A program made the position numbers and the translations under genes. Under the pieces are notes generated by a model that worked only from the letters and a program-made list of their open reading frames with translations, was not told where the DNA came from and searched no databases. This document shows, one piece after another, positions 24,890 through 42,353 of a stretch of DNA of 64,000 bases (positions are counted from its first letter, which is position 1; every line of letters begins with the position of its first letter). The DNA comes from Burkholderiales bacterium (GTDB lineage Bacteria; Pseudomonadota; Gammaproteobacteria; Burkholderiales; JAHFRG01): NCBI GenBank assembly GCA_035543335.1, contig DASZZH010000028.1:16392-80391 (forward strand), read 5' to 3'.

Positions 24890-24895
24890 CTAAGG

Positions 24896-25003
24896 CCCAT
24901 TGTGCACGTTTTGCCGCTGCAGCTCCTCGCCTACCATCTAGCGCTGCAAAGAAGCACCGATACGGACAAACCTAATGCATCTCGTGAAGTCGGCGAAGGT
25001 GGA
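24896..25003 (+). pseudogene. glmS: Decayed 3'-terminal fragment of glmS (glutamine-fructose-6-phosphate aminotransferase)
   Basis: [36 protein letters not shown] aligns by eye with the conserved GlmS C-terminus [36 protein letters not shown]. Confidence 0.7.
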
Positions 25004-25097
25004 ATAATTTACCCTCACCCTATTTTTATAATCCTTTGAGGTTTTTGTTTGCTATGACCATCCAAACGGAGATACGTAGCTAGGAATGGCATAGGTA

Positions 25098-26540
25098 ATG
25101 TCGAGCAAATCTACATTTTCCCAGCATTTTGGCCTAGATAAGTCCCAAGGCGAGCTCGATTTTGTCGACGTTCCACTGAATAGGGACATCGCCTTATTTG
25201 TAGATCCTTTTGCAATTTCGCAGCGTCCGGATCGGTGGTCGCAAGATTCCCATGCCCATCTCCTAGCATTCTTTCAAAAGGTCGTCGATAGTATTAGGAG
25301 CAACCGCAGTGATGAAGCGCGGAATCTTTTGGCCCATCTCAGGGAGCCCAACGAGACCAGATTCGGTCTTTCGCGCGGGAGGCCTCAAGGAGCCGGCATT
25401 GGTCCAAATCAGGCAGACCGCTTATTCCAGGCACTTCGAGAGTCAAACGCTGTAAAGACTGGATTTCTAAGTTCGCTTGAGGAATGTGAACTGATGATCG
25501 AGGGAATCGGCTGGGACAAGATATCCGATCTTACGACAAACGTCGTTCGGGGCAGGCTAGCAGAGTACACTTTCGATCAATGTCAATTGCACGGCGTCCC
25601 CGTACGTGACGTAGCATTAGGGGCATGTTTCTCTCTTAGCGCCCAAGATTGGGTCAACGAATACCTGCAACTGCCTGTTGTGGGTGGAAAGCCGATTTTG
25701 TTGGTTCCGAAGGCCATAGCGCGCTTCGAACCTTCCTATGATCACCAGCATTACTATCGCCACTTCGCTCTTGAGTTCCTGCAAGCGCAACACCTTGCGG
25801 CTGGCTCGAACCTTGTGCACGCCCTCAAGAATGGAAAACGCAAGGTGTACAAGAAGGATCTGCAAGCCAGATACCCATGCACTAAAGACTATCTTTTTCA
25901 GTTTTCGAAAGAACATCCAGAGGTACTTGTTCGATATCGTCAGCATCTTGAACAGCTGGAAAAACGAGGAATACACAGCATAGTAGAAGAGGACGATGAA
26001 CCAGGCATTGCATCAGCGCTTCGCGCCGCATTGGCGGCAATCCCGCCGGGCAATGCACATGCATCGAGTTACCACAAGCTCATGGTCGGCATCCTTGAAT
26101 TTCTCTTTTTCCCGGCGCTCCTCTGCCCGCGAAAGGAACAAGAGATTCACCAAGGCCGTAAGCGAATTGATGTTTTAATGGAGAACGGAGCAACCATCGG
26201 GATCTTCTATCGTCTCCATGCTACTCGAAAGCTTCCCAGCGCATTTGTGGCCTTCGAGTGCAAGAACTACACGACTGAGATCAACAATCCAGAGCTTGAT
26301 CAAATCGCCGGACGCTTCTCGCCGAATCGTGGCAGGGTTGGCTTCATCTGTTGCCGGCATTTTGAGGACAGGGCGCGCTTCGTTCAAAGGTGCCGGGACA
26401 CCCTCAAGGACGACAGAGGTCTCGTGGCCGCGGTTGACGACGCCACGATCGATTTGTGGCTATCCCTAATTGAGGCCCGTCGACGACGAGACCTTGACTC
26501 TGCTATCGCTAGGGTTATCGACGAGGTATGGATTTCGTAG
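25098..26540 (+). CDS. Uncharacterised 480-aa protein; unknown N-terminal ~330 aa plus C-terminal Mrr/PD-(D/E)xK-like nuclease motif
   Basis: C-terminal pattern ...MVGILEFLF...GRKRIDVLMENG...AFVAFECKNYTTEINNPELDQIAGRF (D358, E387-x-K389; nt 26169-26264). Stop is 31 nt upstream of mod on the same strand. About 50% GC, lower than the backbone. Confidence 0.6.
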   Translation: MSSKSTFSQHFGLDKSQGELDFVDVPLNRDIALFVDPFAISQRPDRWSQDSHAHLLAFFQKVVDSIRSNRSDEARNLLAHLREPNETRFGLSRGRPQGAGIGPNQADRLFQALRESNAVKTGFLSSLEECELMIEGIGWDKISDLTTNVVRGRLAEYTFDQCQLHGVPVRDVALGACFSLSAQDWVNEYLQLPVVGGKPILLVPKAIARFEPSYDHQHYYRHFALEFLQAQHLAAGSNLVHALKNGKRKVYKKDLQARYPCTKDYLFQFSKEHPEVLVRYRQHLEQLEKRGIHSIVEEDDEPGIASALRAALAAIPPGNAHASSYHKLMVGILEFLFFPALLCPRKEQEIHQGRKRIDVLMENGATIGIFYRLHATRKLPSAFVAFECKNYTTEINNPELDQIAGRFSPNRGRVGFICCRHFEDRARFVQRCRDTLKDDRGLVAAVDDATIDLWLSLIEARRRRDLDSAIARVIDEVWIS

Positions 26541-26571
26541 AGATTCAATGTAAAGTGGTAGAACTTTCCCA

Positions 26572-28515: not shown

Positions 28516-28525
28516 ACCGTATGCG

Positions 28526-31504
28526 ATGAAGCTCCAATTCGACGCCAATCAACAGTTCCAGCTCGATGCCGTCGCGGCCGTCACGGATCTCTACGACGGT
28601 CAGCCGCAGGGCGCGCCGGAGTACGCCGTGATCGACATGGGCACTGGAATGGGCCTGTTTACCGGCCAGCAGCAGACCGAGCTGGGCGCAGGCAATCAGT
28701 TGCTGGTGGCGGAGGACAAGCTGTTGGCGAACACTCGCGCTCTTCAGACCCGCAATGACATTGAGGTTTCCGACCCAAAGGCGGCGCTTGAAACGTGGGA
28801 GCTGTTCGACGGCCCTGCTAACCAGACGCGCCACTGCCCGCACTTCTCGGTGGAGATGGAGACCGGTACCGGCAAGACCTACGTTTATCTGCGCACTATC
28901 TTTGAGCTCTCGCGGCGTTACGGTTTCCAGAAGTTCATTATCGTGGTGCCGACCGTGGCGATCCGAGAAGGTGTGCTGAAGAACATCGAAATCACCGCCG
29001 ATCATTTCCGCGCGCTTTACAACAACCTTCCCTTCGAGCACTTCGTCTACGACGCACGGAAGGTCAACCGGCTGCGGCAGTTTGCGACCAGCAACACGCT
29101 GCAGATCCTGGTTATCAACATCGACGCTTTCCGCAAGAATTTCACTGGCACTGAGGAAGAACAGAAGAGCAACGTGATCTATAAGGAAAGCGACAAGCTC
29201 TCAGGCCGGCAGCCGATTGAGTTCGTGCAGGCGGCGCGTGCTGTCGTAATCATCGACGAGCCGCAGAGCGTGGACAGTACCGACAAGGCGCAGGAGGCGA
29301 TCAAGGCGCTTAACCCGCTGTGCACGCTGCGCTACTCCGCCACGCACCGCAACCCGTACAACCTGGTGTACCGGCTCGATCCGGTGCGCGCTTTCGAGCT
29401 GAAGCTAGTCAAGCAAATCGTAGTGGCGAGCGCGGCGGCGGACGGAGCGGCAAACGATGCTTTCGTGCGCGTGGAAAAAATTGACTATAAAAATGGCATC
29501 AAGGCCAAGCTGCGCATTCATGTGCAGGGAACAAGTGGGCCGAAGGAGAAATCCGTTATGGTGAAAAATGGCGCGGACCTCCTTACCCTTTCGAATGAGC
29601 GGGCCTGCTACGCGCAGGGGTTTTCCGTGGCCGAGATCAACGCCGAGCCGGGCAGCGAGTTCGTGCGCTTCAGCAATGGCCGGACGTTGCGCCTCGGCGA
29701 GGAAACGGGCGGCATGCGTGAGGACGTGTGGCGCACCCAGATCAAGCACACGGTGAAGCGGCACATGGAGAAAGAGCTGCAGCTGAAAGCCCGCGGCATC
29801 AAGGTGCTCAGTCTCTTTTTCGTCGACCGGGTGGCCAACTACCGCGACTACGACGCGGCAGGCCAGCCGGTGAAGGGCAAGTTCGCCAAGGTGTTCGAAG
29901 CAGAACTTGCAGCGCTGGCAAAGGACGAACGCTTCCGCGAACTGGAGTGGCTCAAGCAACCAATGGACAAGCTCCATAACGGCTACTTTGCCCAGGACAA
30001 GAAGGGCGTGCTCAAGGACACGCGCGGCGACACACAGGCCGACGACGAGGTCTACAACCTTATTATGAAAGAGAAGGAGCGCCTGCTTTCTCTGGATGAA
30101 CCGCTGCGCTTCATCTTCAGCCACTCGGCGCTGCGCGAAGGCTGGGACAACCCGAATGTGTTTCAAATCTGCACGCTCAATGAAACCCGAAGCGCGGTGA
30201 AGAAGCGGCAGGAAATCGGTCGCGGCATGCGTCTGCCGGTGGACCAGAACGGCCTGCGCGTCTTTGACGAGTCGGTGAACAAGCTCTATGTCATGGCCAA
30301 CGAGAGCTACGAGGATTTCGCCCGCGCCTTGCAGACTGAGTACGAAGAAGAATGCGGCGTAACCTTCGGCAAAGTGCCGCTCACTGCGCTTGCCAAAATC
30401 ATTCGGGTGGTGGACGGCGAAGAACGCCCGATTGGGCATGAGGCGGCGGTCACGATACGAGACGCGTTAGTGAATCAGAAGATGCTCGACATAGAGGGGC
30501 GCATCCAGCCGGTGTTCGACCCGAAGCGCAAGGACTTCGAACTGGAACTGCCGGAGGCACATCGTGAGTTGGCGCCGGCAGTCATTGATCTGCTCGCGAC
30601 GTATCAGATCGAACGGCACATTCGCCGGGAGCGGGATGACGGGCCCAACCTGCTCAAGAAGGAGGTCACGCTCAGCCCGGAATTCCAGGCACTTTGGGAT
30701 CACATCAAGCCGAAGACGACCTTTCGGGTGGAGTTCGAAACCGAGAAGCTGGTCACACGGGCAGTCGATGAGCTAAAGCGCATGGAGAAAATCGAGATCC
30801 CCAAGATTCATGTCATCACGGGAAAAGTAGAGGTTACGAAGGGTGGCGTTACAACGAGGGCCACGGGTGCGGCCCAGGAACTAGCTAGTTACAGCTCGCG
30901 CCCCATACCTGACGTACTTGCCTACCTGCAGAACGAAACCGAGCTGACGCGATCAACACTGGTCCGCATCCTCAAGGAATCGGGACGGCTCGTTGAGTTT
31001 TTCAACAATCCGCAGCGATTCATGGATGCCATGGTAGCGATTCTCAAGCATGAGTTGCACCGCCTGCTGGTGGATGGTATCAAGTACGAGCGGATCGATG
31101 GCACGGGCTCGGAAGCGGAGTGGGAGATGCTGCTCTTCAAGAACGAGGAGCTGATTAACTATCTGACGGCGCTGCAGGTGAACAAGTCGGTCTACGAGTA
31201 TGTGGTCTACGACTCGGAGGTGGAGCGCGAGTTCGCCAAGCGTCTCGACCAGCGCGAGGACATCAGGCTCTTCGTGAAGTTACCCGGCTGGTTCGAGATC
31301 GACACTCCTGTGGGCAAGTACAATCCTGACTGGGCCATTGTGAAGCACGACAACCAAACGCTTTACCTTGTGCGCGAAACCAAAGGCACTAAAGATTTCA
31401 TGAACCTCCGCACCAGCGAGGCGGACAAGGTGCGATGCGGGCAGAAGCACTTCGAGACATTAGGTGTTCCGTTTGCTGTGGCAGTCACGGCAGACGAGGT
31501 ATGA
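28526..31504 (+). CDS. res: Type III restriction enzyme Res subunit (helicase-nuclease)
   Basis: 992 aa; Walker A METGTGKTY, DEAH-variant VVIIDEPQS, SALREGWDNPNVF, C-terminal PD...ExK nuclease (YNPDWAIV...LYLVRETKG). Confidence 0.92.
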   Translation: MKLQFDANQQFQLDAVAAVTDLYDGQPQGAPEYAVIDMGTGMGLFTGQQQTELGAGNQLLVAEDKLLANTRALQTRNDIEVSDPKAALETWELFDGPANQTRHCPHFSVEMETGTGKTYVYLRTIFELSRRYGFQKFIIVVPTVAIREGVLKNIEITADHFRALYNNLPFEHFVYDARKVNRLRQFATSNTLQILVINIDAFRKNFTGTEEEQKSNVIYKESDKLSGRQPIEFVQAARAVVIIDEPQSVDSTDKAQEAIKALNPLCTLRYSATHRNPYNLVYRLDPVRAFELKLVKQIVVASAAADGAANDAFVRVEKIDYKNGIKAKLRIHVQGTSGPKEKSVMVKNGADLLTLSNERACYAQGFSVAEINAEPGSEFVRFSNGRTLRLGEETGGMREDVWRTQIKHTVKRHMEKELQLKARGIKVLSLFFVDRVANYRDYDAAGQPVKGKFAKVFEAELAALAKDERFRELEWLKQPMDKLHNGYFAQDKKGVLKDTRGDTQADDEVYNLIMKEKERLLSLDEPLRFIFSHSALREGWDNPNVFQICTLNETRSAVKKRQEIGRGMRLPVDQNGLRVFDESVNKLYVMANESYEDFARALQTEYEEECGVTFGKVPLTALAKIIRVVDGEERPIGHEAAVTIRDALVNQKMLDIEGRIQPVFDPKRKDFELELPEAHRELAPAVIDLLATYQIERHIRRERDDGPNLLKKEVTLSPEFQALWDHIKPKTTFRVEFETEKLVTRAVDELKRMEKIEIPKIHVITGKVEVTKGGVTTRATGAAQELASYSSRPIPDVLAYLQNETELTRSTLVRILKESGRLVEFFNNPQRFMDAMVAILKHELHRLLVDGIKYERIDGTGSEAEWEMLLFKNEELINYLTALQVNKSVYEYVVYDSEVEREFAKRLDQREDIRLFVKLPGWFEIDTPVGKYNPDWAIVKHDNQTLYLVRETKGTKDFMNLRTSEADKVRCGQKHFETLGVPFAVAVTADEV

Positions 31505-31631
31505 GAGATAAGAATGGGTGCGATCATGGGGGAGTAAAAATAGGCTCAGATTCGATTTCTGAGTTACGGCCTGTGATCCTTGCACTCCGGAGTGCCGCTT
31601 GGTGCGCGAGGCAAATGTTCCTCACACCGGT

Positions 31632-31735
31632 GTGAGAATATGACAGACATTGAAATCATCACCTCGCAGCAAAAACCTACCGAGGGGATGGTGACGCTGA
31701 CCCATGTCATCTACGCGCTGCACGCTTTCAGCGCG
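31632..31735 (+). repeat. R2.1: truncated copy of the 5' end of the membrane-protein gene at 39527
   Basis: gtgagaatATGacagacattgaaatcatcacctcgcagcaaaaacctaccgaggggatggtgacgctgacccatgtcatctacgcgctgcacgctttcagcgcg encodes MTDIEIITSQQKPTEGMVTLTHVIYALHAFSA, cf. resident MGIDIPQSKPTEGMVTLTHVIYGLHAFSA. Confidence 0.85.
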
Positions 31736-31812
31736 ACGCGGGTCAGTAGCTTCGATTAACCAACGATGGTGTAAATGAGCGCTCAGAACATTATGAAGTG
31801 GTTCATTGACCC

Positions 31813-31927
31813 GCTGGCATCCGCTCCGCGGTCGCGTCCCCACTGTGCGGGGCCCCTGCTCCGCGCTTCGCGTCGCAACCATTCGTTATGGCGACTATTC
31901 TTCGACTTCGCTCAGGACAGGCTCTGA
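31813..31927 (+). repeat. R3.1: conserved GC-rich leader element upstream of fic
   Basis: gctggcatccgctccgcggtcgcgtccccactgtgcggggcccctgctccgcgcttcgcgtcgcaaccattcgttatggcgacta...gctcaggacaggctctga; copies at 35267 and 36424. Confidence 0.75.
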
Positions 31928-31938
31928 GCAGTTGACGC

Positions 31939-32577
31939 ATGACTAATCGTTACCAAGCCCGTGGGATTGAGGCGGAATTCGAGCCTGGCTCACGTGGACG
32001 CGTTCTGCAGAATCTGCTTGGTGTTAAGTCGACCCGAGAGATGGCGCGGCGCGAATCAGAAGCGCTCCTTGTCACGACCCGGCAATTGATTGACGATACA
32101 CGCTCGGACCAGAGATTCACCTCGGAGGACGTCCGGCGGATACATAGGTTATGGTTTGGGGAAATTTATGCGTGGGCTGGGCAATATCGGCACGTCAACA
32201 TTGCCAAGGGCGATTTCATGTTCGCCGCAGCCAGCGAAGTATCTCGGTTGATGCGGGAGTTCGAGCGCGGACCGTTGCATGAATTTACGCCCTGCCGATT
32301 CGCGCCCCATGAGGAACAAGCGCGTGCTTTGGCAGTGGTGCACGCTGAGCTAATCCTGATCCATCCTTTCCGCGAAGGAAACGGTCGTTGCGCGCGCCTG
32401 CTCTCCGTGCTGATGGGGTTGCAGGCAGGATTGCCGGCCCTGGACTTTGTTGGAGTTCGTGGGGATGAAAAGCAACGTTACATTGCCGCCGTCCACGCCG
32501 CTATGGACCGCGACTATGAACCTGATGACCATAGTATTTCGAAAGATTATTGCCCGCACATTGCGGTCACAGGCTAG
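31939..32577 (+). CDS. fic: Fic-domain protein (AMPylase-type toxin), C-terminal frameshift likely
   Basis: 212 aa; Fic motif HPFREGNGRCARLL. After DYEP (about 32520) the paralog-like C-terminus LMTIVFRKIIARTLRSQARAWRG* continues in another frame to 32593. Confidence 0.85.
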   Translation: MTNRYQARGIEAEFEPGSRGRVLQNLLGVKSTREMARRESEALLVTTRQLIDDTRSDQRFTSEDVRRIHRLWFGEIYAWAGQYRHVNIAKGDFMFAAASEVSRLMREFERGPLHEFTPCRFAPHEEQARALAVVHAELILIHPFREGNGRCARLLSVLMGLQAGLPALDFVGVRGDEKQRYIAAVHAAMDRDYEPDDHSISKDYCPHIAVTG

Positions 32578-32792
32578 GGCTTGGCGCGGTTAGAGCGGGC
32601 TTTGCTGACGGGTACTTTACGGCTGCTTGAAACTAATTCATGTTTTCCGACATCGAGCGCCATTTGTTTAAAAGGTGCATGGATGCCTTCAATCGCCGAC
32701 GAGCTGGCAACGGAATTGAACAGCATCCGCTCGCGAATGACGGCGTCTAGCAGATAGGGATTACTAGCGGAAAGTTTTGCACCCATATACAA
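32574..32792 (-). CDS. VbhA-like Fic antitoxin candidate (convergent with fic)
   Basis: 72 aa; ...NSVASSSAIEGIHAPF contains the Fic-inhibitory (S/T)xxxE(G/N) motif. Its 3' end overlaps the fic 3' end. Confidence 0.55.
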   Translation of the reverse strand: MYMGAKLSASNPYLLDAVIRERMLFNSVASSSAIEGIHAPFKQMALDVGKHELVSSSRKVPVSKARSNRAKP

Positions 32793-32823
32793 ATTATAAC
32801 AGTTATAGACTCAAATTATAAGT

Positions 32824-32852
32824 TATGAACAGCGCAACTATCGTCCAAAAAC
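32824..32852 (+). pseudogene. First ~10 codons of a type I R-M hsdM-like gene
   Basis: atgaacagcgcaactatcgtccaaaaactt = MNSATIVQKL, matching the longer fragment at 36292 and the HsdM N-terminal pattern. Confidence 0.45.
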
Positions 32853-32904
32853 TTTCACGGAGACAGTATCGGAGACAGAGGAGACAGGATCAGGGCTTGA
32901 ATTA

Positions 32905-33003
32905 TCAGTTTTCAATTGTGACATTCTTCCTTTGGGCGTGAGAATATGACAGACATTGAAATCATCACGTCGCAGTCAAAACCTACTGAGGAGATGGTGA
33001 CGG
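32905..33003 (+). repeat. R2.2: truncated copy (upstream region plus first ~20 codons)
   Basis: ...tcagttttcaattgtgacattcttcctttgggcgtgagaatATGacagacattgaaatcatcacgtcgcagtcaaaacctactgaggagatggtgacgg; homology ends earlier than in the other copies. Confidence 0.8.
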
Positions 33004-33021
33004 TTGGCTAGCCAAAACTGT

Positions 33022-33441
33022 TCAGAGCTTACCCACCGCTTCGTAAAAAGCCAGAATTCTGGGCGCAGTAAAGCGGGATTCAGTCAAACCGTGGCAGACG
33101 CGGGCAAATATTTCTTCACCTAACATTCCCTTGGGCGAAAGTACGCCGTGCTTCACACCGTCAACGAGCTTCTGCGACGCTTCAATGCGCGCCTCCGCGT
33201 AGTACACGTAGCTCTTGTGCCGGATGAATGGATGGTCGCCTGCGTACAATTCGCATGCCGGATCGTGTGGGATACCCTCTTGGATGGTGCTTACACCGAC
33301 GAACAGTGAATGCTTCGCGTCGTAGTTAAGGACCTGAGCCGGATCGGTCAGGAGAATGAAAAGGTGTTTTTGGTCGGGATCATGTGCCGGTCCTGACGGG
33401 ACGAGCAATGTCGCCCGCCGATAGGGCACAAACAACTTCAC
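33022..33441 (-). CDS. Hypothetical 139-aa protein, candidate toxin partner of the Panacea-domain antitoxin
   Basis: ATGA overlap with the upstream DUF4065 gene. I recognise no family. Loose resemblance to SH3-barrel (MazF/CcdB-like) toxins is speculative. Confidence 0.4.
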   Translation of the reverse strand: MKLFVPYRRATLLVPSGPAHDPDQKHLFILLTDPAQVLNYDAKHSLFVGVSTIQEGIPHDPACELYAGDHPFIRHKSYVYYAEARIEASQKLVDGVKHGVLSPKGMLGEEIFARVCHGLTESRFTAPRILAFYEAVGKL

Positions 33442-33992
33442 AAGCTCGCGAAGAGCTTATCGATGTGGCGCTGCTGTTCGACCCGTGCTCCCAGCTTTCG
33501 AGCTTCGGCGGGGCTGCGGCCAAGCGCCTTGAATATTTCCTCGTAACTGATGGGAATGGACGACCCGTTCGGGTCTTGCCATTCACGGCAGTAACGGTGG
33601 ATATACTTCACCAAATCCCATTGGTTCACCTTACCGAATTTGGCGAAGACATCGCGAAGAACATCGATGTCAGCATTGCTCAGTTCATCGAGTACTTCTC
33701 GTGTGGCCCTTCGCCTGAGCGATACGGCGTAATCGGCTTTGTCGGCGATCCAGTGATCCCAGCCACGCTCTTGAAACTTCACCGCACCATTGATGAGATT
33801 GAGTGTATTGGATAGCACGGGTCCGTGATCCATGGAAACATAGCGGTCGCCTGAAATCGGGTGTCCGTGACGCTTCATAGATTCTCGATCCGCGAGATAC
33901 AGAAGCTTCATCAGCTTCAGGTATTTCATGCGGGTCCTAGCGTGATTGAGAAGGTACGCCGCCATTTGGGCGACTCGCCGCTCGTTAAACAT
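33438..33992 (-). CDS. Panacea-domain (DUF4065, SocA/PanA-like) antitoxin
   Basis: 184 aa; AAYLLNHARTRMKYLKLMKLLYLADRESMKRHGHPISGDRYVSMDHGPVLSNT matches the DUF4065 pattern. Confidence 0.75.
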   Translation of the reverse strand: MFNERRVAQMAAYLLNHARTRMKYLKLMKLLYLADRESMKRHGHPISGDRYVSMDHGPVLSNTLNLINGAVKFQERGWDHWIADKADYAVSLRRRATREVLDELSNADIDVLRDVFAKFGKVNQWDLVKYIHRYCREWQDPNGSSIPISYEEIFKALGRSPAEARKLGARVEQQRHIDKLFASL

Positions 33993-34089
33993 GGTTCCCC
34001 CGTGCTTCAGGTCCAGAGTTCGGTTGACGAGAATTGCCTGTAGTAACCATGGACGGTTAGATTATAGCCAAGTTCCCTGGATTTAGGTA

Positions 34090-34272
34090 AATAATGGCAG
34101 GCAAAAATGCGGTCGGAGTCATTTTGTTGAATAACAATCTCGCTGTAGGCGTGAGGATATGGCAGACATTGAAATCATCGCATCGCAGTCAAAACCCACC
34201 GAGGGGATGGTGACGCTCACCGATGTCATCTACGCGCCGCACGCTTTCAGCGCGCTGATGGGGGTGCTCGGG
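34090..34272 (+). repeat. R2.3: copy including ~60 bp upstream region and first ~38 codons
   Basis: aaataatggcaggcaaaaatgcggtcggagtcattttg...gtgaggatATGgcagacattgaaatcatcgcatcgcagtcaaaacccaccgaggggatggtgacgctcaccgatgtcatctacgcgccgcacgctttcagcgcgctgatgggggtgctcgggc. The ORF it opens (34159-34377) ends in ATGA on the vapB start. Confidence 0.85.
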
Positions 34273-34373
34273 CTGATCTTCAGCAGGTCGTTGGGCGGCT
34301 TCACGGTCTTCGGCGTTTCCCGAAGCCCTTGGTCAGATTTGCAGAATTTCTGCATTTCTGATAAACTGCAATC

Positions 34374-34616
34374 ATGAAAACCACTCTTACCATGACCAGC
34401 CGCGGCGTGGTGACACTACCCGCCAAGCTCCGTCTCGCGCTCGGCCTCAAGCCCGAAGATCATCTCATCGCTGAGACAACGCCGGAGGGTCTGCTGCTAC
34501 GTCCGGCAGTTACCCTTCCAGTGGAGGTCTACACCGACAAGCGAATCCGCGAGTTCGACGAGGCCGAAGCGGATCTCGGCAAGTTCCTTCGCCGCAAGAA
34601 GAAGCCCGCCCGCTGA
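34374..34616 (+). CDS. vapB: AbrB/MazE(SpoVT)-type antitoxin VapB
   Basis: 80 aa; MTSRGVVTLPAKLRLALGLKPEDHLIAETTPEGLLLRP. Confidence 0.8.
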   Translation: MKTTLTMTSRGVVTLPAKLRLALGLKPEDHLIAETTPEGLLLRPAVTLPVEVYTDKRIREFDEAEADLGKFLRRKKKPAR

Positions 34617-34624
34617 CGCCGCGG

Positions 34625-35044
34625 ATGCGGATTTTCCTCGACGCGAACATCCTGTTTTCCGCCGCCAAGTCCGACGGCGCCGTGAGGCGGCTCGTGGACT
34701 TGCTCATCGCGGCCGGTCATGAATGCTGGGTGGACGGCTACGTGACGGAGGAAGCGCGGCGCAACATCGCCGTGAAGTTCCCAGACGGCATGGCTGCCCT
34801 CGACTTGCTCTTGTCGCGCGTACATGTAGCGGCCATCCACGCTCCCGATGCGGCGCTCGAAGGCACGCTGCCGCTGCCGGAAAAGGACCGGCCGGTGCTC
34901 GCCGCGGCGATCCACCATAGTTGCCAAGCATTGGTCACGGGCGATCGCACGCATTTCGGCCGCCTCTATGGCAAGACCATTCATGGTGTGACGATTCACT
35001 CCCCGCTCTCGCTCGCGGAAGCGCTGCTCAATGTAAGGCGGTAA
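34625..35044 (+). CDS. vapC: PIN-domain toxin VapC
   Basis: 139 aa; MRIFLDANILFSAA...EKDRPVLAAAIHHSCQALVTGDRTHF. Confidence 0.8.
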   Translation: MRIFLDANILFSAAKSDGAVRRLVDLLIAAGHECWVDGYVTEEARRNIAVKFPDGMAALDLLLSRVHVAAIHAPDAALEGTLPLPEKDRPVLAAAIHHSCQALVTGDRTHFGRLYGKTIHGVTIHSPLSLAEALLNVRR

Positions 35045-35189
35045 AAAAGCAAATAATGCGGGCGGAGTCGTTTTCACGAGCAATGTGGATGTGAGAATAT
35101 GACAGACAATCATCACATCGCAGTCAAAACCCACAGAGGGCATGGTGACGCTCACCCATGTTATCTACGCGCTGCATGCTTTCAGCGCG
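35044..35189 (+). repeat. R2.4: copy with upstream region; carries an internal 8-nt deletion in the leader ORF
   Basis: aaaaagcaaataatgcgggcggagtcgttttcacgag...gtgagaatATGacagacaatcatcacatcgcagtcaaaacccacagagggcatggtgacgctcacccatgttatctacgcgctgcatgctttcagcgcg. Confidence 0.85.
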
Positions 35190-35266
35190 ACGCGGGTCAG
35201 TAGCCTTGATTAACCGACGATGGTGTCAATGAGCGCTCAGAACATTATGAATTGGTTCATTGACTC

Positions 35267-35405
35267 GCTGGCATCCGCTCCGCGGTCGCATCCCCACTGT
35301 GCGGGGCCCCTGCTCCGCGCTTCGCGTCGCAACCATTCGCTATGGCGACTATCCTTCAGCTGCGCTCAGGACAGGCCCTTCGGTTGCGCTCAGGACAGGC
35401 TCTGA
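35267..35405 (+). repeat. R3.2: conserved leader element upstream of the second fic
   Basis: Near-identical to R3.1 apart from a 24-nt internal duplication (gcgctcaggacaggcccttcggtt). Confidence 0.75.
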
Positions 35406-35416
35406 ACAGTTGACGC

Positions 35417-36067
35417 ATGACTAATCGTTACCAAGCCCATGGGATTGAGGCGGAAATCGAACCTGACTCACGCAGGCGGGTGTTGCGAAACCTTCTGGGT
35501 ATCACGCGCGTACGGGACATGCAGGCTGCGGAATCGCAGGCGCTGCATCTTGCACAGGCGCAGGCAATAGAGACTGTGTCTGATAACCAGCGATTTACCG
35601 CAGCCGATATTTGTCGGCTGCATAGGCTGTGGCTCGGTCCGATTTACGCTTGGGCCGGGGAGTACCGTACCGTGAATCTCGGCAAGGGAGGATTTCAGTT
35701 TGCCAATGCAGAGTTGATCCCCGCGTTGATGGAAGAACTGGAGCGTAAGGTACTGCAAAAGTACACGCCGTGTTTAGCGGCACCCGATGAGGCCATTGCC
35801 GAAGCACTAGCCATCGTGCATGCTGAGCTGGTCCTGGTTCATCCGTTTCGTGACGGCAACGGGCGATTGGCACGGCTGCTCGCGCTTCTCATGGGACTTC
35901 AGGCAGGATTACCACCGCTGGATTTTTCGTCCCTGGACGGGCGCGGCAAGCGTCTTTACATCGCGGGAATCCACGCCGCGATGGGGCACGACTACAGCAC
36001 GTTGATCGGGATGTTCCGAAGAGTTATCGACCGGACTTGGAAGCGTGTTTCTTCCAATAGTCGATAA
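35417..36067 (+). CDS. fic: Fic-domain protein (AMPylase-type toxin)
   Basis: 216 aa; Fic motif HPFRDGNGRLARLL; about 55-60% identical by eye to the 31939 paralog. Confidence 0.9.
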   Translation: MTNRYQAHGIEAEIEPDSRRRVLRNLLGITRVRDMQAAESQALHLAQAQAIETVSDNQRFTAADICRLHRLWLGPIYAWAGEYRTVNLGKGGFQFANAELIPALMEELERKVLQKYTPCLAAPDEAIAEALAIVHAELVLVHPFRDGNGRLARLLALLMGLQAGLPPLDFSSLDGRGKRLYIAGIHAAMGHDYSTLIGMFRRVIDRTWKRVSSNSR

Positions 36068-36215
36068 GGGCTTGCGCCGTGGGTGGTTGCCAGGCGTGCG
36101 GGCCGAAGGGATGGCGGATGCCTTCGATCGCAGAGGAAGTCTTAGCCGATACCCAAAGGGCTGCCTTGGCTTGGCCGGGAGACCTCAGGAATCGATTGGA
36201 TTTTGCGAGCTTCAT
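36024..36215 (-). CDS. VbhA-like Fic antitoxin candidate (convergent; 44-nt 3' overlap with fic)
   Basis: Likely start M32 of the track ORF (36215): MKLAKSNRFLRSPGQAKAALWVSAKTSSAIEGIRHPF... with the (S/T)xxxE(G/N) motif. Confidence 0.55.
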   Translation of the reverse strand: MKLAKSNRFLRSPGQAKAALWVSAKTSSAIEGIRHPFGPHAWQPPTAQALIDYWKKHASKSGR

Positions 36216-36291
36216 AATAAATATTTTACCCTTCATGGAGTGAAATGACCACTCTGATTGAGCCTCTGCGGCAGATTCGCATGGGCAGCCT

Positions 36292-36354
36292 ATGAATACC
36301 GCGACCATCGTCCAAAAGCTCTGGAACTACTGCAACGTCCTGCGTGACGCGGGT
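36292..36354 (+). pseudogene. 5' fragment (~21 codons) of a type I R-M methyltransferase gene (hsdM-like)
   Basis: MNTATIVQKLWNYCNVLRDAG matches the conserved HsdM N-terminal motif (…VQKLWNxCNxLRDDG…); the sequence then degenerates. Confidence 0.6.
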
Positions 36355-36423
36355 CCGTTCGGTTTTGCTGGATCATCGGAAGTATCGAGTTGCGAGCAGT
36401 TCAATAAGGTAGCCAAATGACCC

Positions 36424-36506
36424 GCCAGCATCCGCTCTGCAGTCGCATCCCGCAGGCGGGTCCCTGCTCCACGCTTCGCGGCGCAAGAATTCGCTACGGC
36501 GACTAC
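36424..36506 (+). repeat. R3.3: diverged third copy of the leader element
   Basis: ccagcatccgctctgcagtcgcatcccgcaggcgggtccctgctccacgcttcgcggcgcaagaattcgctacggcgacta. Confidence 0.6.
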
Positions 36507-36542
36507 GTCGAGCAGCGCGTCCATAATGTTCCTCGTGCCGGC

Positions 36543-36646
36543 GTGAGAATATGACAGACATTGAAATCATCACATCGCAGACAAAACCTACCGAAGGGAT
36601 GGTGACGCTCACCCATGTCATCTACGCCCTACACGCTTTCAGCGCA
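36543..36646 (+). repeat. R2.5: truncated copy of the membrane-protein gene 5' end
   Basis: gtgagaatATGacagacattgaaatcatcacatcgcagacaaaacctaccgaagggatggtgacgctcacccatgtcatctacgccctacacgctttcagcgca. Confidence 0.85.
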
Positions 36647-36731
36647 CTAAATACTCAGGGGGCCGAGTAATATCGTAGTCGCTTCAAATATAAATCGTCT
36701 CTGACCGCCAGTAATCCTTCCGAGCGCGGCG

Positions 36732-37526
36732 CTAGTCTGCGGTATAGCCTTGGATCTCGGTCTGGGTGTAGCGCATTTGTTCTTCCATGACCAATTTCGA
36801 CAGTTCCTTTTTCAGCGCGTTGAATTCCGCGCTCGCACTGTCGCGCGGGCGCGGCATCGCGATACGCACGTCGCGCTTGATGGTGCCGGGCCGGTAAGTC
36901 ATCACCGCCACGCGGTCGGCCAGGTAAACGGATTCTTCGATGCTGTGAGTGACGAAGACGATGGTTTTCCGGTACTCGTCCCAGATGCGCAGCAATTCGT
37001 CTTGCAAGGTGTGGCGGGTCAAGGCGTCGAGCGCGCCGAAAGGCTCATCCATCAGCATGATCGGCGAGTCGAGCGCCAGCACGCGGGCGATCGCCACACG
37101 CTGGTTCATGCCGCCGGAGAGGTCCTTGGGAAAACGCTCGCGAAACTCGTAGAGGTTGAGTTTGCGCAGGAGCCTGTCCACTTTCCCGTTCATTTCTGCC
37201 TTGGGCAAGCGCTTTATCTCGAGGCCGAAGCGGATGTTCTGCGCTACCGTCATCCAGGGAAACAAGGCGTATTCCTGAAACACCATGCCGCGGTCGGGGC
37301 CCGGAAACCTGGCGGCATCCGCCCTGCCGTTGATGGCGATGCTGCCGCTGGTCGGGGGTGAAAAACCGGCGATGGCATTGAGCAGGGTGGATTTGCCGCA
37401 GCCCGACGGCCCCAGCAGACAAACGAACTCGCCCTCTCCGACATCAAGATTGATGTCTTTCAGCGCAATGACTTCACCCCCCGGGACCGGAAAACTCTTA
37501 TTGACGTTTTCGATATGGATGAACAT
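36732..37526 (-). CDS. ABC transporter ATP-binding protein (nitrate/sulfonate/taurine NitT family)
   Basis: 264 aa; Walker A GPSGCGKST, signature LSGGMNQRVAIARVLA, Walker B IMLMDEPFGALD. Confidence 0.9.
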   Translation of the reverse strand: MFIHIENVNKSFPVPGGEVIALKDINLDVGEGEFVCLLGPSGCGKSTLLNAIAGFSPPTSGSIAINGRADAARFPGPDRGMVFQEYALFPWMTVAQNIRFGLEIKRLPKAEMNGKVDRLLRKLNLYEFRERFPKDLSGGMNQRVAIARVLALDSPIMLMDEPFGALDALTRHTLQDELLRIWDEYRKTIVFVTHSIEESVYLADRVAVMTYRPGTIKRDVRIAMPRPRDSASAEFNALKKELSKLVMEEQMRYTQTEIQGYTAD

Positions 37527-37538
37527 CGCCGCTATCCA

Positions 37539-38366
37539 TTAATTCTGGTCGATACCGCGGTGCCACTTGAGCAGCCAGTTGTTCAGGCCGTTCATGAAGA
37601 AGTCGATACCCAGCCCGAGCAAGCCGATGGTGAACATTCCCGCGATGATCTTGTCCGACCACAAGTATTCGCGAGCCTCAAGGATGCGGTAGCCGAGACC
37701 GCTGTTCACCGCGATCATCTCCGCGACAATCACCACGATGAACGCCGTGCCGATGCCGATGCGCATGCCGGTGAGAATGTACGGCATTGCCGCCGGCACG
37801 ATCACCCGGCGGAACAGGGTCATCTGGCCTGCGCCCAGATTGCGCGCCGCGCGCAGATAGATTCCGTCCACGTGCCGCACGCCCGCAATGGTATTCATCA
37901 ACACCGGAAAGAAAGCACCGATGCTGATCAGGAAAAAAGCCGGCGGGTTGCCCAGACCAAACCAGAGGATGGCAAGGGGTATATAAGCGATGGGTGGAAT
38001 GGGCCGCAGCACTTGTACCAGCGGATTGAACAAGCCGTAAAGCTTGTTGCTGGCACCCATCAGCAGACCGAGGGGCAGCGCAAGCAGCGTGCCGATCAGG
38101 AACCCGCCCACCACTCGCGACAGGCTTGCGAGAGCGTCGTGCGGCAGCTCGCCCGAAACCAGCCACAAGGCGTAACTGCCTCCGCTGTAAGAAGCAGTGG
38201 GCCGCAAGTACTCCCACCACTTGGCAACCACCTGCGTAGGTGACGGCAGTATCTGCGGGTTGACCCAGCCGCTCATCGCCAAGAACTGCCACAGCGCCAA
38301 GACCGCAACGGGAATGACGACACCCCTGGCGAAGTTCAGGATGCCTCTGAAATAAGCTACTCCCAT
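37539..38366 (-). CDS. ABC transporter permease (SsuC/TauC-like)
   Basis: 275 aa, multi-TM, binding-protein-dependent transport inner-membrane pattern; sits between the ATPase and the binding protein. Confidence 0.88.
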   Translation of the reverse strand: MGVAYFRGILNFARGVVIPVAVLALWQFLAMSGWVNPQILPSPTQVVAKWWEYLRPTASYSGGSYALWLVSGELPHDALASLSRVVGGFLIGTLLALPLGLLMGASNKLYGLFNPLVQVLRPIPPIAYIPLAILWFGLGNPPAFFLISIGAFFPVLMNTIAGVRHVDGIYLRAARNLGAGQMTLFRRVIVPAAMPYILTGMRIGIGTAFIVVIVAEMIAVNSGLGYRILEAREYLWSDKIIAGMFTIGLLGLGIDFFMNGLNNWLLKWHRGIDQN

Positions 38367-38375
38367 GACCCGCCT

Positions 38376-39350
38376 TTACTTGACCTTCAACTCGGCCTTG
38401 GCTTTTTCCAGCAGGTCGAGCTTCACCCAATCTTTCGCCGCCGGGGCATTGGCGCCCATCTTGCCCACGCCATATTTCTGCATCAGATCAGTGGTGATCT
38501 GGACGTGCTCGACCGTGAGATCATAGGTGTAGGGCGAATTAGCAATCGCATCTTTGAAGTCCTGCGAGGTGATCTGATTCTTAAACATTTGCTCGCGCAC
38601 GTACTTCTCGGCCACCTCCGGCTTCGCGATGAACAAGGCCGTAGCCTCGACGAATACGTTAAGCAGCTTCTGCGCCACCTGCGGGCGTTCCTTGTAAAGC
38701 TTCTCGGTGATCACGAGAGAACGGATCGGCTCGCCCATGGGCGTGTCGTAAGGCTTAATCACCTCTATACCGAACCCCTTGTTGATAGCCTGGGAGGACT
38801 GAGGTTCGGATTGGCACATGGCGTCGATGTCCTTGCCCAGCAGCGCCTGGTTGAGATCGGCGTAGGCAAGGTAAACGATTTGCACGTCCTTGCCCGGCTT
38901 TTCCGACCAAGTGAGCCCCGCCTTGCTTAGCTCGGCGAAGAGCAGCAGCTCGTGCGCACCGCCGCGCGCGACTCCCACTGTCCTGCCTTTCAGGTCGGCC
39001 ACTGATTTGATCGCCAAGTCGCTGCGAGCGACGATCCGCGCGCCGCCCTTGGCGAAGCCGGCGACGGCATAAATCGGCACACCCTGCGTGCGCCCCGCAA
39101 TCGCCCCATCCAGCGCGCTCGCCGCGGCATCAATCTCACCGGCAATAATGGCCGGCAAGATGTCGATGCCCTTCGCGAACATGCGTTCTTCGATTTTGAG
39201 CCCGTATTTGGGCGCGATCTCCTTCATATAGGAAACCGCACCGTAGTGAGCAAACTTCAGATTGCCTAATCGGACTACATCTTCAGCCGATGCGTTACCC
39301 GCCGTCACGGCGCCGCATACCAGCAGCGCCCACCCCATTTTTCTCAACAT
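38376..39350 (-). CDS. Periplasmic substrate-binding protein (SsuA/TauA/NMT1-like)
   Basis: 324 aa with signal peptide MLRKMGWALLVCGAVTAGNASA; operon context. Confidence 0.8.
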   Translation of the reverse strand: MLRKMGWALLVCGAVTAGNASAEDVVRLGNLKFAHYGAVSYMKEIAPKYGLKIEERMFAKGIDILPAIIAGEIDAAASALDGAIAGRTQGVPIYAVAGFAKGGARIVARSDLAIKSVADLKGRTVGVARGGAHELLLFAELSKAGLTWSEKPGKDVQIVYLAYADLNQALLGKDIDAMCQSEPQSSQAINKGFGIEVIKPYDTPMGEPIRSLVITEKLYKERPQVAQKLLNVFVEATALFIAKPEVAEKYVREQMFKNQITSQDFKDAIANSPYTYDLTVEHVQITTDLMQKYGVGKMGANAPAAKDWVKLDLLEKAKAELKVK

Positions 39351-39526
39351 ATATTCTCCTTTGGCTCAAGCCAGCGCGAGTTTGGCATTATTTTACAACT
39401 TTATGTTCTTTTGGCCCAACCGCCCGCGGAAGCGCGGCTCAATATAAGGCGATGAAAAAGCAAATTATGGGGCTAGAGTCATTTTCTTGAGTGACATTTT
39501 CGCAGTGGAGTGAGAACATAACAGAC

Positions 39527-39931
39527 ATGGGCATCGACATACCGCAGTCAAAACCTACCGAGGGGATGGTGACGCTCACCCATGTCATCTACGGCCTTCA
39601 CGCCTTCAGCGCGCTGATGGGGATGCTCGGGCCGGCGTTTATCGTGACGGCGTTTCTCACCGGCTGGCCGTCCATCATCGCGGTCATCATCAATTACGCG
39701 AGGCGCTCGGACGTACGCGGCACGTATCTCGATTCGCACTTCGGCTGGCAAATCCGCACTTTCTGGTATGCGCTGTTGTTAGTGGTGATCGTAGGAGTAC
39801 TCATCTTCACCGTCCTCGGCATCCCGTTTGCCTGGATGCTGGCCATTATCGCCGGACTCTGGGTGATTTACCGCATCACCCGCGGCTGGATCGCGCTCAT
39901 CAACAGCGAGCCGATGCCGGTGCCGAGCTAG
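39527..39931 (+). CDS. Small integral membrane protein (COG3671/DUF4870-like, tentative); resident copy whose 5' end is repeated five times upstream
   Basis: Track ORF starts at GTG 39491; ATG 39527 preferred by analogy with the repeat copies. MGIDIPQSKPTEGMVTLTHVIYGLHAFSALMGMLGPAFIV...YLDSHFGWQIRTFWYALLL..., 3-4 TM helices. Confidence 0.6.
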   Translation: MGIDIPQSKPTEGMVTLTHVIYGLHAFSALMGMLGPAFIVTAFLTGWPSIIAVIINYARRSDVRGTYLDSHFGWQIRTFWYALLLVVIVGVLIFTVLGIPFAWMLAIIAGLWVIYRITRGWIALINSEPMPVPS

Positions 39932-39949: not shown

Positions 39950-40558
39950 TTACTTAATCAGCCCTTCCGCTTTCATCGTTTTCTGCACCGTCGGGCGGGC
40001 GGCGACGCGGGCCATGTAGTCCTTGAGTTTCGGCCACTTCCCCATATCGATCTTGTGCAAGTTGGTCCAGTTGAGCACCGTGAAGAGGTAGGCGTCCGCC
40101 ACGCTGAACTTGTCGCCCATCACGTACTGCTTGCCGTCGAGCGCCGCCGTGAGGTAGTCGAAGCGCCGGCCGACCAGGGCGAGCTGAGCTTCTTTCCACT
40201 CCGGCGTCATCTTCGGGTTGAAGAACGCGCCGAGGGATTTGTGGACTTCCGTCGCGATGAAGTTCACCCATTCCATCAGGCGGTAGCGGTCCATGGTGCC
40301 GGCCTTGGGCGCGAGGCCCGACTCGAGCTTCCGGTCCGCGAGGTATTGAATGATGACGCCGACTTCGGTGAGCACCTGCCCATCATCGAGCTTGAGGGCG
40401 GGCACGTAGCCTTTCGGATTGGTCTTCCGGTAATCCTCTCCGCCGGCGGTTTTCATCGCGGCAAAGTCGACCTTATCCAAATCGAAGTTGTAGCCCGCTT
40501 CGCGCAGGACGATGTGCGGGGCCATCGAGCAGGCGCCCGGATAGTAGTAGAGCTTCAT
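39950..40558 (-). CDS. gst: Glutathione S-transferase
   Basis: 202 aa; MKLYYYPGACSMAPHIVLREAG...VPALKLDDGQVLTE. Confidence 0.9.
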   Translation of the reverse strand: MKLYYYPGACSMAPHIVLREAGYNFDLDKVDFAAMKTAGGEDYRKTNPKGYVPALKLDDGQVLTEVGVIIQYLADRKLESGLAPKAGTMDRYRLMEWVNFIATEVHKSLGAFFNPKMTPEWKEAQLALVGRRFDYLTAALDGKQYVMGDKFSVADAYLFTVLNWTNLHKIDMGKWPKLKDYMARVAARPTVQKTMKAEGLIK

Positions 40559-41606: not shown

Positions 41607-41669
41607 CGCGGAATTGAACAGTCAGCCCGCAGCATCCGTGTTCGTGAATTGCTGGGTGGCAACCAGAGT

Positions 41670-41987
41670 TCAGATTCCAGTAAAAACCAAGTCGAGCGCA
41701 GCGATGATTGCGTTGCGTTGGCTTGAAAGATTGTCAATCCGCTTACCGAGAATTTTTGCCGGCACGCCCGCCAGTTCGGGTGTCAGCATCATTAGTCTCT
41801 TTCCCTCAATTTCATATACAGGATTAAGTCGATCTGCTGCCTTACCCTTGAGTACATCGGGTTTGCAAAGCGGGACGACAACCCGCGTCGCCAGCGGCTC
41901 GCGCAAATCCAACTGAACATCGAGCAGGTAGGGAATGCGGGCGCGGGTTGCGGGATTCGAGTTGCGGTAGACGTCAAACTGCGCCAT
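41670..41987 (-). CDS. ccdB: CcdB-family toxin (gyrase poison)
   Basis: 105 aa; [25 protein letters not shown]...RVVVPL...LNPVYEIEGKRLMMLTPELAGVP. Confidence 0.88.
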   Translation of the reverse strand: MAQFDVYRNSNPATRARIPYLLDVQLDLREPLATRVVVPLCKPDVLKGKAADRLNPVYEIEGKRLMMLTPELAGVPAKILGKRIDNLSSQRNAIIAALDLVFTGI

Positions 41988-42235
41988 TAAAACGAACGCA
42001 ATCCATCGCTGAATACGCCGTGCTTGTCAACGTATTCGTTGTAAGCTTCGATTGCGGCACGGTTTTTCTTCAGCCATTCCTCGCGCTGGCGCTGGCGGAT
42101 GGCTTCGCTCAGGCCGGTCTCGAATATCTGCGACTGGTTGAGCTTGAGGCGCTTGGCCCTTTCCAGCAGGTCGATGTCGACGCTGAGGTTCGCTGCTTTT
42201 TTGCGCGAGCGTAGAGCGCGGGTTCGGGTGAGCAT
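41987..42235 (-). CDS. ccdA: CcdA-family antitoxin
   Basis: Likely start M11 (42235); ...[55 protein letters not shown]; 1-nt overlap with ccdB. Confidence 0.8.
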
Positions 42236-42353
42236 GGGGGGCAATCCACTACTGTTTATGCGCATAGTCTATGCGCATTCCGGGCTGTATGTAATCCTGA
42301 ACATTTCTGCCGCTGGAGTCCCGTATAATGCGGCCATCACGGCCGGAGGATCC

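Follow-up and report, generated by a model that had tools for sequence, protein, structure and literature searches.

How toxin-antitoxin (TA) and other small defence modules move between chromosomes, and build up in them, without mobility genes is an old and poorly documented question. It is raised here by a locus on contig DASZZH010000028.1 of a Burkholderiales metagenome-assembled genome (MAG), in which a preliminary description had noticed five truncated copies of the 5' end of a DUF4870 gene among cassettes encoding TA modules. We analyzed the 64-kb stretch of DNA that contains this locus, denoted below as the window. The locus is a two-sided scar array without a visible recombinase that records the build-up of a TA and defence hotspot. 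The array of DUF4870 5' ends is the right half of this structure, and a mirror array of truncated thiC 3' ends at 20.0-24.8 kb is the other half. The reading that we favor, with a probability of roughly 55%, is that the ~21-kb island bounded by the core genes thiC and DUF4870 (~18.0-39.5 kb) is a recombination hotspot that was filled from both sides by serial homology-anchored insertion, either through homology-facilitated illegitimate recombination or through single crossover.

Truncated ends of two flanking genes in the island

The right flanking core gene (39527-39931, + strand, with its upstream region at 39421-39526) encodes a member of a large family, to which some sources give the name DUF4870 in relatives; its product matches a hypothetical protein of a soil Burkholderiales MAG at 100%. 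A degenerate 33-nt core from the 5' end of this gene occurs at exactly six co-oriented sites in the 64 kb, compared with 0.00 expected from 100 shuffles. Repeat-family search and alignment concurred, so that the five truncated copies, in addition to the intact gene, are real. All lie on the + strand. R2.1 (31614-31734) extends from -27 to +96 of the gene and R2.5 (36525-36648) from -27 to ~+100; R2.2 (32887-33002), R2.3 (34107-34281, with degenerate codons) and R2.4 (35010-35189, with a long upstream region and a 5-nt deletion) include 50-150 nt of the upstream region and reach +57, ~+125 and +96, respectively. The earlier observations that three copies contain upstream DNA, that one copy (R2.3) runs further, by ~30 nt, and that one (R2.2) stops earlier were thus borne out.

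A shared end point for three of the copies stood only in part. R2.1, R2.4 and R2.5 all terminate near +96, at ...TTTCAGCGC(G/A), but the fic cassettes that follow R2.1 and R2.4 are paralogous, so that these two ends are one and the same junction and there are two independent junctions near +96 rather than three. Over the whole set, which includes a further copy in a related MAG (L081), alignment revealed no common breakpoint: the 3' limits of homology are +42 (L081), +57, +96, ~+100 and ~+125, and the 5' limits are -27, -52, -59 and -150. The stretch common to all DUF4870 fragments is -20 to +42.

The left flanking core gene is thiC (16146-18017, + strand; Pfam ThiC_Rad_SAM, E = 3e-188), which is syntenic with L081. 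Four truncated thiC 3' ends, co-oriented with the gene, carry its last 57-78 nt, the stop codon and ~5 nt beyond it. The first, t-a (20085-20153), comprises the last ~57-60 nt; its identity is 97% with t-c and ~67% with the tail of the resident gene. The second, t-b (21901-21986), is degraded and fused to a 5' fragment of higA (21846-21900; junction ...CTGAA|ACTGAGGCG). The third, t-c (23877-23954), follows a truncated copy of an antidote-like open reading frame (ORF; 23679-23882), and t-d (24716-24797) is fused to a short higA 5' fragment. The left starts of the fragments are at -57, -63 and -72/-78. The two arrays are therefore mirror images: DUF4870 has five of its 5' fragments on its left and thiC has four of its 3' fragments on its right, in both cases representing the island-proximal end of the flanking gene.

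The allelic origin of the copies sets them apart from the genes next to them. Translated, the truncated DUF4870 copies read MTDIEIITSQ.KPTEG..., as the N-terminus usually does in relatives (P0003, P0023 and L081), whereas the resident gene starts with MGIDIPQ.... With the genes of L081, L083 and L085, the copies share 91-96% identity (92-96% for L081 and L083; 93-96% with that of L081 for R2.1 and R2.5, with 95.8% for R2.1) versus 82-86% with the window's own gene, and they resemble one another less than they resemble genes from other genomes. L081 presents the same picture: its own truncated copy, located 5' of a lipoprotein gene and ending at +42, belongs to the allele class opposite to that of its intact gene. 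Considering that allele classes and identities differ, the copies are displaced ends of other alleles and not local duplicates of resident genes, in agreement with what had been proposed from the first ~35 nt of the window copies.

Both types of junction for which the parents are known lie at microhomologies. In the left junction shared by the two fic cassettes, position +96 of DUF4870 is fused to nt ~57 of hsdM (C[AT]GCG[CT]G), where DUF4870 reads CAGCGCG and hsdM reads CTGCGTG; at t-b and t-d, the junction joins higA CTGAA(GCCG) to thiC CCGAA(ACTG). In searches for the remaining parents, none was found for the R2.5|ABC junction (77 nt) or for the 68 nt that follow the truncated copy of L081. 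The fic-vbhA pair of cassette 4 is itself bracketed by two hsdM 5' fragments, so that the design of the island is repeated with a third, unrelated sequence.

The arrangement of the same genes in relatives shows that the thiC-DUF4870 locus is a genuine acquisition hotspot. In the window, waaA, a methyltransferase gene and thiC occupy 13.8-18.0 kb and DUF4870 lies at 39.5 kb. The gene order of L081, a further Burkholderiales MAG, runs waaA, methyltransferase, thiC, a 338-aa lipoprotein gene, DUF4870, a 120-aa gene and DUF3014. Because a single gene fills this gap in L081 (other gene sets occupy it in other relatives), the island was built up by ~21 kb between two conserved genes. The backbone in L091 and L092 consists of an ABC importer, MFS, lipoprotein, DUF4870, 120-aa, GST, DUF3014 and bacA genes. 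Among relatives, the hotspot varies gene by gene, with MFS, the lipoprotein gene (lipo334), GST, mazEF, phd-doc and vapB(C) each present or absent, and the boundaries of these variable genes are tight, within ~10-20 nt of the ORFs.

The structure of the window is reproduced by independent assemblies. Logan per-run contigs L165 (corresponding to 31931-32964) and L171 (32939-35320) are 100% identical to the window over the aligned junctions, and L173 covers the ABC block and matches the window; the array therefore does not stem from assembly or binning. Exact-protein look-ups for the source population returned only contigs identical to the window, with no alternative arrangement or empty site.

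Proposed homology-anchored insertion and its alternatives

Under the reading of two-flank serial insertion, incoming DNA from related bacteria would carry the 3' part of thiC or the 5' part of DUF4870 beside foreign cargo. One end would be anchored by RecA-type recombination in the shared gene, whereas the other end would be attached by an illegitimate join at a microhomology within the resident copy, that is, by homology-facilitated illegitimate recombination. A second route would be a single crossover between the locus and a circular or ends-in molecule with a short gene-end fragment; in E. coli, circles with a partial gene end integrate in this way and produce 109-950-bp duplications of the lacZ end (PMC3240628). 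Either route would yield an intact flanking gene, new cargo and a displaced, truncated, island-proximal end, and repeated rounds would generate two mirror arrays with no dedicated recombinase. The gene-end fragments would then serve as portable homology arms, by which cassettes could spread between related genomes through ordinary recombination. Adjacencies of cargo and anchor gene are ordinary in relatives: a vapB homologue (80-84% identity) lies immediately 5' of DUF4870 in L083, and the ABC genes occur together with the shared upstream region in L084.

The same scenario would bear on which cargo remains. Direct repeats of 60-180 nt would promote loop-out deletion, by which neutral cargo would be purged, so that mostly addictive cargo, namely TA and restriction-modification (R-M) modules, would survive. 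When both halves of the island are counted, seven of the ten compartments hold TA modules, one holds an R-M block, and two are metabolic (FAD oxidase and ABC importer). The metabolic cargos are the outermost compartments, adjoining the intact flanking genes; these positions would be the youngest, which fits such survivorship.

One round of insertion might still be discernible at the left anchor. The 3' 1.3 kb of thiC (16750-18017) is 93-95% identical to L081, compared with ~71-87% for neighbouring genes, or ~71-91% when the 5' third of thiC is considered together with them. This difference suggests a recent import via the left anchor that replaced the thiC tail, the old tail being displaced as t-a; stronger constraint on that part of the gene could be an alternative cause. 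A search for the donor of the thiC fragments, with the ThiC C-terminus of the fragment-type tail as the query, returned partial ThiC proteins, among which P0254 and P0258 have similar tails, but no exact match.

Several observations weigh against homology-anchored insertion. The homologies are short (60-180 nt) and ~10% diverged, which makes them inefficient substrates for RecA, and in its classical form, homology-facilitated illegitimate recombination usually leads to the loss of target DNA, not to its duplication. The two independent DUF4870 junctions at +96/+100 are ~4 nt apart, a clustering beyond that of random illegitimate joining; many of the 5' fragments are alike in length (~57-100 nt); and decay of the copies does not rise monotonically with distance from the intact genes, so that no age gradient is apparent. 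In the left array, the right limit of all four thiC fragments falls ~5 nt past the stop codon although the DNA beyond differs. Furthermore, t-a, t-c and t-d are 92-97% identical to one another and only ~65% identical to the present thiC tail, which precludes homologous recombination with the current allele; the left array must therefore be older than a replacement of the thiC 3' end, or was imported as a block. The phenomenon may also not be general: among 164 related loci, extra copies are present only in the window and in L081/L082. This search covered 80 genome loci and 80 metagenome loci by peptide and nucleotide comparison and also detected, in L001, an upstream-only fragment of the repeat region; a metagenome search with a 60-aa N-terminal query returned full-length genes only. 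Finally, the window is 64 kb of a 213-kb contig from one short-read soil MAG.

The alternative that survives best, although we consider it unlikely, is site-specific accretion, in which some cassettes would carry an attP mimicking the DUF4870 5' end and others an attP mimicking the thiC 3' end, with the recombinase encoded elsewhere or the integrase modules subsequently deleted. Target-end direct repeats indeed flank each unit, and an intact gene, DUF4870 or thiC, stands at the end of each array. The stretch from -20 to +42 could hold a crossover core, the high mutual identity of the thiC fragments and their common boundary at stop+5 resemble the repeat families of chromosomal integrons, the two independent junctions near +96/+100 point in the same direction, and only part of the genome is in view. 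The crossover position is constant, however, only for the right limit of the thiC fragments and not for DUF4870. Any common core would be confined to -20 to +42, and in most copies the homology would then extend past it on both sides without explanation, an excess that an attP has no reason to include. The resident thiC tail is native-like rather than repeat-type, as an attL would be, and the joins with known parents are located at microhomologies. Moreover, the thiC 3' end, the DUF4870 5' end and the hsdM 5' end, three unrelated sequences, bracket cargo in the same manner, and one site-specific recombinase would not explain all three.

The gene content of the region is also at odds with accretion. 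When every non-overlapping ORF of 90 aa or more in the 64 kb was compared with Pfam, no integrase, resolvase, transposase or IntI and no remnant of one was identified, as had been reported from the sequence at first sight, and the island contains no unassigned gap longer than ~300 nt. No integrase was detected in L081-L084, and none recurs among the 128 ORFs located within ~1.8 kb 5' of DUF4870 in relatives, a set in which singletons are not fully visible. Together, the results argue against a dedicated recombinase, although one could be encoded outside the window. The earlier notion of serial integration at a gene 5' end is thus supported in outline, considering the hotspot and the foreign-allele copies; its integron or att-site mechanism is not, considering the variable ends, the lack of an attC fold, the inverted cargo and the three unrelated bracketing sequences.

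Somewhat less probable again is the possibility that the gene-end fragments are themselves the true recombination sites, comparable to attC or attI, of a platform for cassettes without an integron integrase. Capture, stacking and exchange of TA and defence cassettes from both sides would then be the work of a recombinase whose gene lies elsewhere, or of a dedicated host pathway. This idea draws on the constant stop+5 boundary, the +96/+100 clustering and the other misfits listed above. All searches for structures typical of such sites were negative. There are no inverted repeats of at least 25 nt in 30-41 kb; the DNA fold of R2.5 and of the t copies is no better than that of shuffled sequences (z between -0.9 and +0.5); the lower value of R2.1 (z = -2.9) comes solely from local hairpins absent from the other copies; and a consensus fold of the t copies displays no covariation. 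A consensus search with up to three mismatches gave 0 matches to a dif-like XerC/XerD 28-bp site in the window. The sole Rfam match in the window is the thiamine pyrophosphate (TPP) riboswitch 5' of thiC (15970-16115), with one sub-threshold chance match in the array, and the window contains no tRNA gene. Nor are the cassettes uniformly co-oriented as in integrons: the pair formed by a toxin candidate and the SocA/Panacea antitoxin (PanA), the ABC genes and hipBA are all on the opposite strand.

Segmental duplication in situ across the DUF4870 5' and thiC 3' ends, followed by replacement or divergence of the interiors through gene conversion and deletion, appears improbable. In its favor, there are internal partial duplications in both arrays and paralogous junctions, namely J1 = J4 (flanks 92-93% identical) and higA'::thiC' at t-b and t-d. 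The cargos, however, are mutually unrelated, genes of other genomes match the copies better than the resident gene does and better than the copies match one another, and for copies and resident genes to have diverged by 10-35%, duplications of non-functional DNA would have to be very old. The copy in L081 is independent, with another breakpoint and the opposite allele class.

We regard as no more probable than in situ duplication the proposal that the copies are kept for a function, supplying a promoter, leader or short peptide for the adjacent cargo. A promoter-like GTGACA-16-GAGAAT is present in R2.2 (32918-32945), with similar sequences in R2.3, R2.4 and the resident copy, but R2.1 and R2.5 have no -35 region, R2.4 has suffered the 5-nt deletion, and R2.3 and t-b carry disruptive changes. 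Three of the five cargos in the right half are co-oriented with the repeat; the other two, the PanA-toxin pair and the ABC genes, are inverted, and thiC 3' fragments cannot be such promoters in any case. The ORF that begins in R2.3 (34159-34377) overlaps the vapB start by ATGA, as had been described; chance alone would give an open frame of this kind (~30 codons, up to the vapB start) in ~1 of 5 cases, and we judge the overlap to be compatible with chance. A function would at most account for the retention of the copies, not for their origin.

The promoter-like motif ends at the annotated DUF4870 ATG. Some homologues (P0035 and P0041) are 121 aa long and cover only ~90% of the query. The true start of DUF4870 may be an internal ATG (MVTLTH..., preceded by GAGGGG), in which case the variable "N-terminus" would be a 5' leader.

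An assembly or binning artefact that strung strain variants together is hardly credible, even for a short-read MAG with per-run contigs that break inside the repeats, because those contigs are identical to the window across the R2.2-R2.4 and cassette 1-R2.2 junctions, the copies are shorter than the assembly k-mer and 8-18% different, the truncated copies end in unique sequence, and an analogous truncated copy is present in a second MAG and an unrelated run (L081 and L082). Insertion by Tn7 or CRISPR-associated transposons, insertion sequences or casposon-type elements was rejected, because the window contains no transposase and the target duplications of such elements are only a few to ~15 bp.

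Cargo of the island and variation around it

Most TA cargo genes and the PDC-M36A-like gene of the central block have GC content at third codon positions (GC3) of 0.46-0.68, compared with 0.73-0.86 for the flanking core genes; the value for res is 0.77. Next to thiC, the outermost left compartment holds a FAD-binding oxidase gene (18337-19764, - strand; Pfam FAD_binding_4 and Cytokin-bind), which is not an addiction module. After t-a comes a higB-higA pair (20254-20843, + strand; Pfam HigB-like_toxin and HTH_3). Behind it are a second higA with a frameshift (20855-21147), an antidote-like ORF (21164-21484) and a helix-turn-helix (HTH) ORF (21504-21833). A hipA-hipB pair lies between t-b and t-c on the - strand (22044-23523, with hipA at 22044-23342 and hipB at 23281-23523; Pfam HipA_C and Couple_hipA, and HTH_3), and a mazE-mazF pair precedes t-d (24086-24645, + strand; Pfam MazE_antitoxin and PemK_toxin).

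The middle of the island is occupied by a block on the + strand (25098-31504) that consists of the PDC-M36A-like gene (25098-26540), type III mod (26572-28515) and res (28526-31504), identified with PADLOC (PDC-M36A, MTase_III and REase_III) and Pfam. The PDC-M36A-like protein, encoded directly 5' of the type III methyltransferase, is 480 aa long, has no Pfam or NCBIfam hit, and matches a candidate defence family of PADLOC (E = 1e-43). Upstream of the block, a fragment of the glmS 3' end (24890-24976, + strand) corresponds to residues 571-599 of the 608 residues of E. coli GlmS (phmmer against PDB, E = 2e-4), which suggests that the block once resided at a glmS-adjacent hotspot. This fragment lies inside an ORF (24767-25039), behind an ORF start that resembles the N-terminus of a restriction enzyme. 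Downstream of the block is a scar with a second, truncated copy of the res 3' end (31537-31604, + strand); the same scar is found in L001 (8549-8645).

In the right half, the identities of the cargos given in the preliminary description were confirmed with Pfam, namely two Fic proteins, a SocA/Panacea antitoxin, a MazE-type antitoxin with a PIN toxin, and an ABC importer. Cassette 1 (31735-32853, + strand), between R2.1 and R2.2, comprises an hsdM' fragment with an insert of ~150 nt (31735-31925), fic (31939-32577, + strand; Pfam Fic and PADLOC PDC-S04), a VbhA-like antitoxin gene (32574-32792, - strand; SxxxEG motif in the translation) and an hsdM' 5' start (32825-32853), the hsdM' parts being recognized by alignment with hsdM. 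Three GGAGACAG units form a short run (32854-32886) between the latter fragment and the upstream region of R2.2. Cassette 2 (33022-33992, - strand) encodes a toxin candidate (33022-33441) and the SocA/Panacea antitoxin (33438-33992; Pfam SocA_Panacea, E = 2e-25), and cassette 3 (34374-35044, + strand) encodes VapB (34374-34616) and the PIN domain protein VapC (34625-35044). Cassette 4 (35189-36515, + strand) is a paralogue of cassette 1, judging by internal repeats, Pfam matches and hsdM alignment, with hsdM' and its insert (35189-35379), fic (35417-36067, + strand; Pfam Fic), a VbhA-like gene (36024-36308, - strand) and hsdM' nt 1-~96 with an insert (36292-36515). Both fic genes are thus paired with a convergent small ORF bearing the SxxxEG inhibitory motif. 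Close homologues of the cassette Fic, with loci L165-L170 among those compared, number in the thousands in metagenomes, very many of them on ~1-kb contigs; on longer contigs, the fic gene is inside or beside R-M operons (N6_N4_Mtase, ResIII and RhuM).

The outermost right compartment contains the ATPase, permease and binding protein of the ABC importer (36732-39350, - strand), with core-like GC3 (0.75-0.79). The importer is 90-94% identical in relatives; the binding protein and permease are 93-94% identical to those of L084 at the protein level, and the DNA homology with L084 spans 37176-39465, including the shared upstream region. The importer is the native upstream neighbour of DUF4870 in relatives, as backbone maps also show, and not a mobile cassette, contrary to the initial assignment.

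The ~150-nt insert that interrupts the hsdM 5' fragments is present at 31745-31897, 35199-35351 and 36350-36505. Its conserved part contains a hairpin (GGTCGCATCCCC-loop-GGGGCCCCTGCTCCGCGC) in which the changes of loop and stem are compensatory, and for which Rfam gave no match. Similar motifs occur in intergenic DNA of distant Proteobacteria (L159, 19217-19262; L102, 393-433; L013, 6393-6441); in L159, two diverged copies of a gene's final ~57 nt stand on either side of the motif. The insert may be a small mobile or structured element.

Genes around DUF4870 vary in relatives in ways of their own. The GST gene occupies three positions relative to DUF4870 in the window (39950-40558) and its close relatives (L001, 9164-9850; L088, 1346-1954; L089, 3960-4565; L091, 7460-8065), with boundaries within ~10 nt of the stop codon and ~20 nt of the start, and 3' fragments of this gene are fused to, or located after, the end of the MFS gene in L001 (6283-6322) and L083 (223-246). 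A ccdB-ccdA pair (41607-42353 in the window) lies between DUF3014 and bacA, where it begins 6 nt past the DUF3014 stop codon without a duplication (compared with L001, 12464-12473), and mazEF or phd-doc modules are found at other nearby intergenic sites in L001, L085, L086 and L088. In L001, the closest relative in the genome collection, DUF4870 (9881-10405) is fused in frame behind a 5' fragment of ~30 codons from another gene (MKRIVICCDGTWNTPDQ...), which we take to be DUF2235-like.

Known arrays and biological meaning

The locus would work like the displacement arrays of polymorphic toxins and like Campbell-type integration. Displacement arrays are known from the rhs and contact-dependent inhibition (CDI) orphan arrays and from the effector-immunity arrays of the Vibrio cholerae type VI secretion system (T6SS) (Kirchberger et al. 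2017, PMC5361080; Jackson et al. 2009, cited therein). In those arrays and in the window alike, an intact conserved gene stands beside truncated variable-side ends, each with different acquired cargo, and there is no integrase; a homologous anchor with an illegitimate join, and subsequent spread by homologous recombination, has likewise been proposed for them. The island also has copies from different alleles or lineages and, for the two junction types with known parents, microhomology joins at variable positions. It differs in that two genes supply the repeats, on two sides of the island, one of housekeeping type through its 5' end and the other through its 3' end; in that one displaced end is a 5' end with a promoter instead of a toxin tip; and in that the cargo (TA, R-M, transport and other metabolic genes) has no functional tie to the anchor genes, so that this is not a polymorphic-toxin locus. 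Campbell-type single crossover (Amarir-Bouhram et al. 2011, PMC3240628) similarly leaves an intact gene, an insert and a truncated gene-end duplicate (109-950 bp) without a site-specific recombinase, but it was a laboratory plasmid event in E. coli, whereas the homologies in the window are shorter (60-180 nt) and diverged, and the events natural and serial.

Like sedentary chromosomal integrons and clusters of attC sites lacking integron integrases (CALIN), the island is an array of small cassettes, many of them TA pairs, with a repeated separator, and the thiC fragments resemble each other more than the site at the array head. Unlike integrons, it lacks intI, its repeats are gene-end fragments without an attC hairpin or R'/R'' cores, its cassettes are in both orientations, and its boundaries are variable. 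Target-end repeats mark successive insertions in SXT/R391 elements at the prfC 5' end, in the accretion of integrative and conjugative elements (ICE) and cis-mobilizable elements (CIME), and in tRNA-fragment arrays; where integration occurs at a 5' end, the gene receives a new promoter and 5' coding sequence from the element. In contrast to such tandem accretion, the units in the window are 1-3 kb, with no integrase within a unit or nearby, no common crossover and unrelated targets. The Xer-dependent dif modules of Acinetobacter plasmids are small, often consist of TA pairs, and have short repeated sites and no recombinase of their own; the window, unlike these, has no dif-like 28-mer, and its repeats are gene fragments of 60-180 nt, in direct orientation and chromosomal.

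The locus thus provides a readable record of acquisition, with about ten compartments bordered by flank-gene scars, scars from different alleles, some joins at microhomologies and simpler states in relatives. This record suggests that ordinary homologous recombination and illegitimate joining can build an integron-like array, and that addiction explains why TA and R-M modules remain in it. If a recombinase acts in trans, the locus would instead represent a new kind of cassette platform. If homology-anchored insertion is the correct reading, truncated ends of flanking genes could be a general marker by which acquisitions in recombinase-free hotspots are found and ordered.

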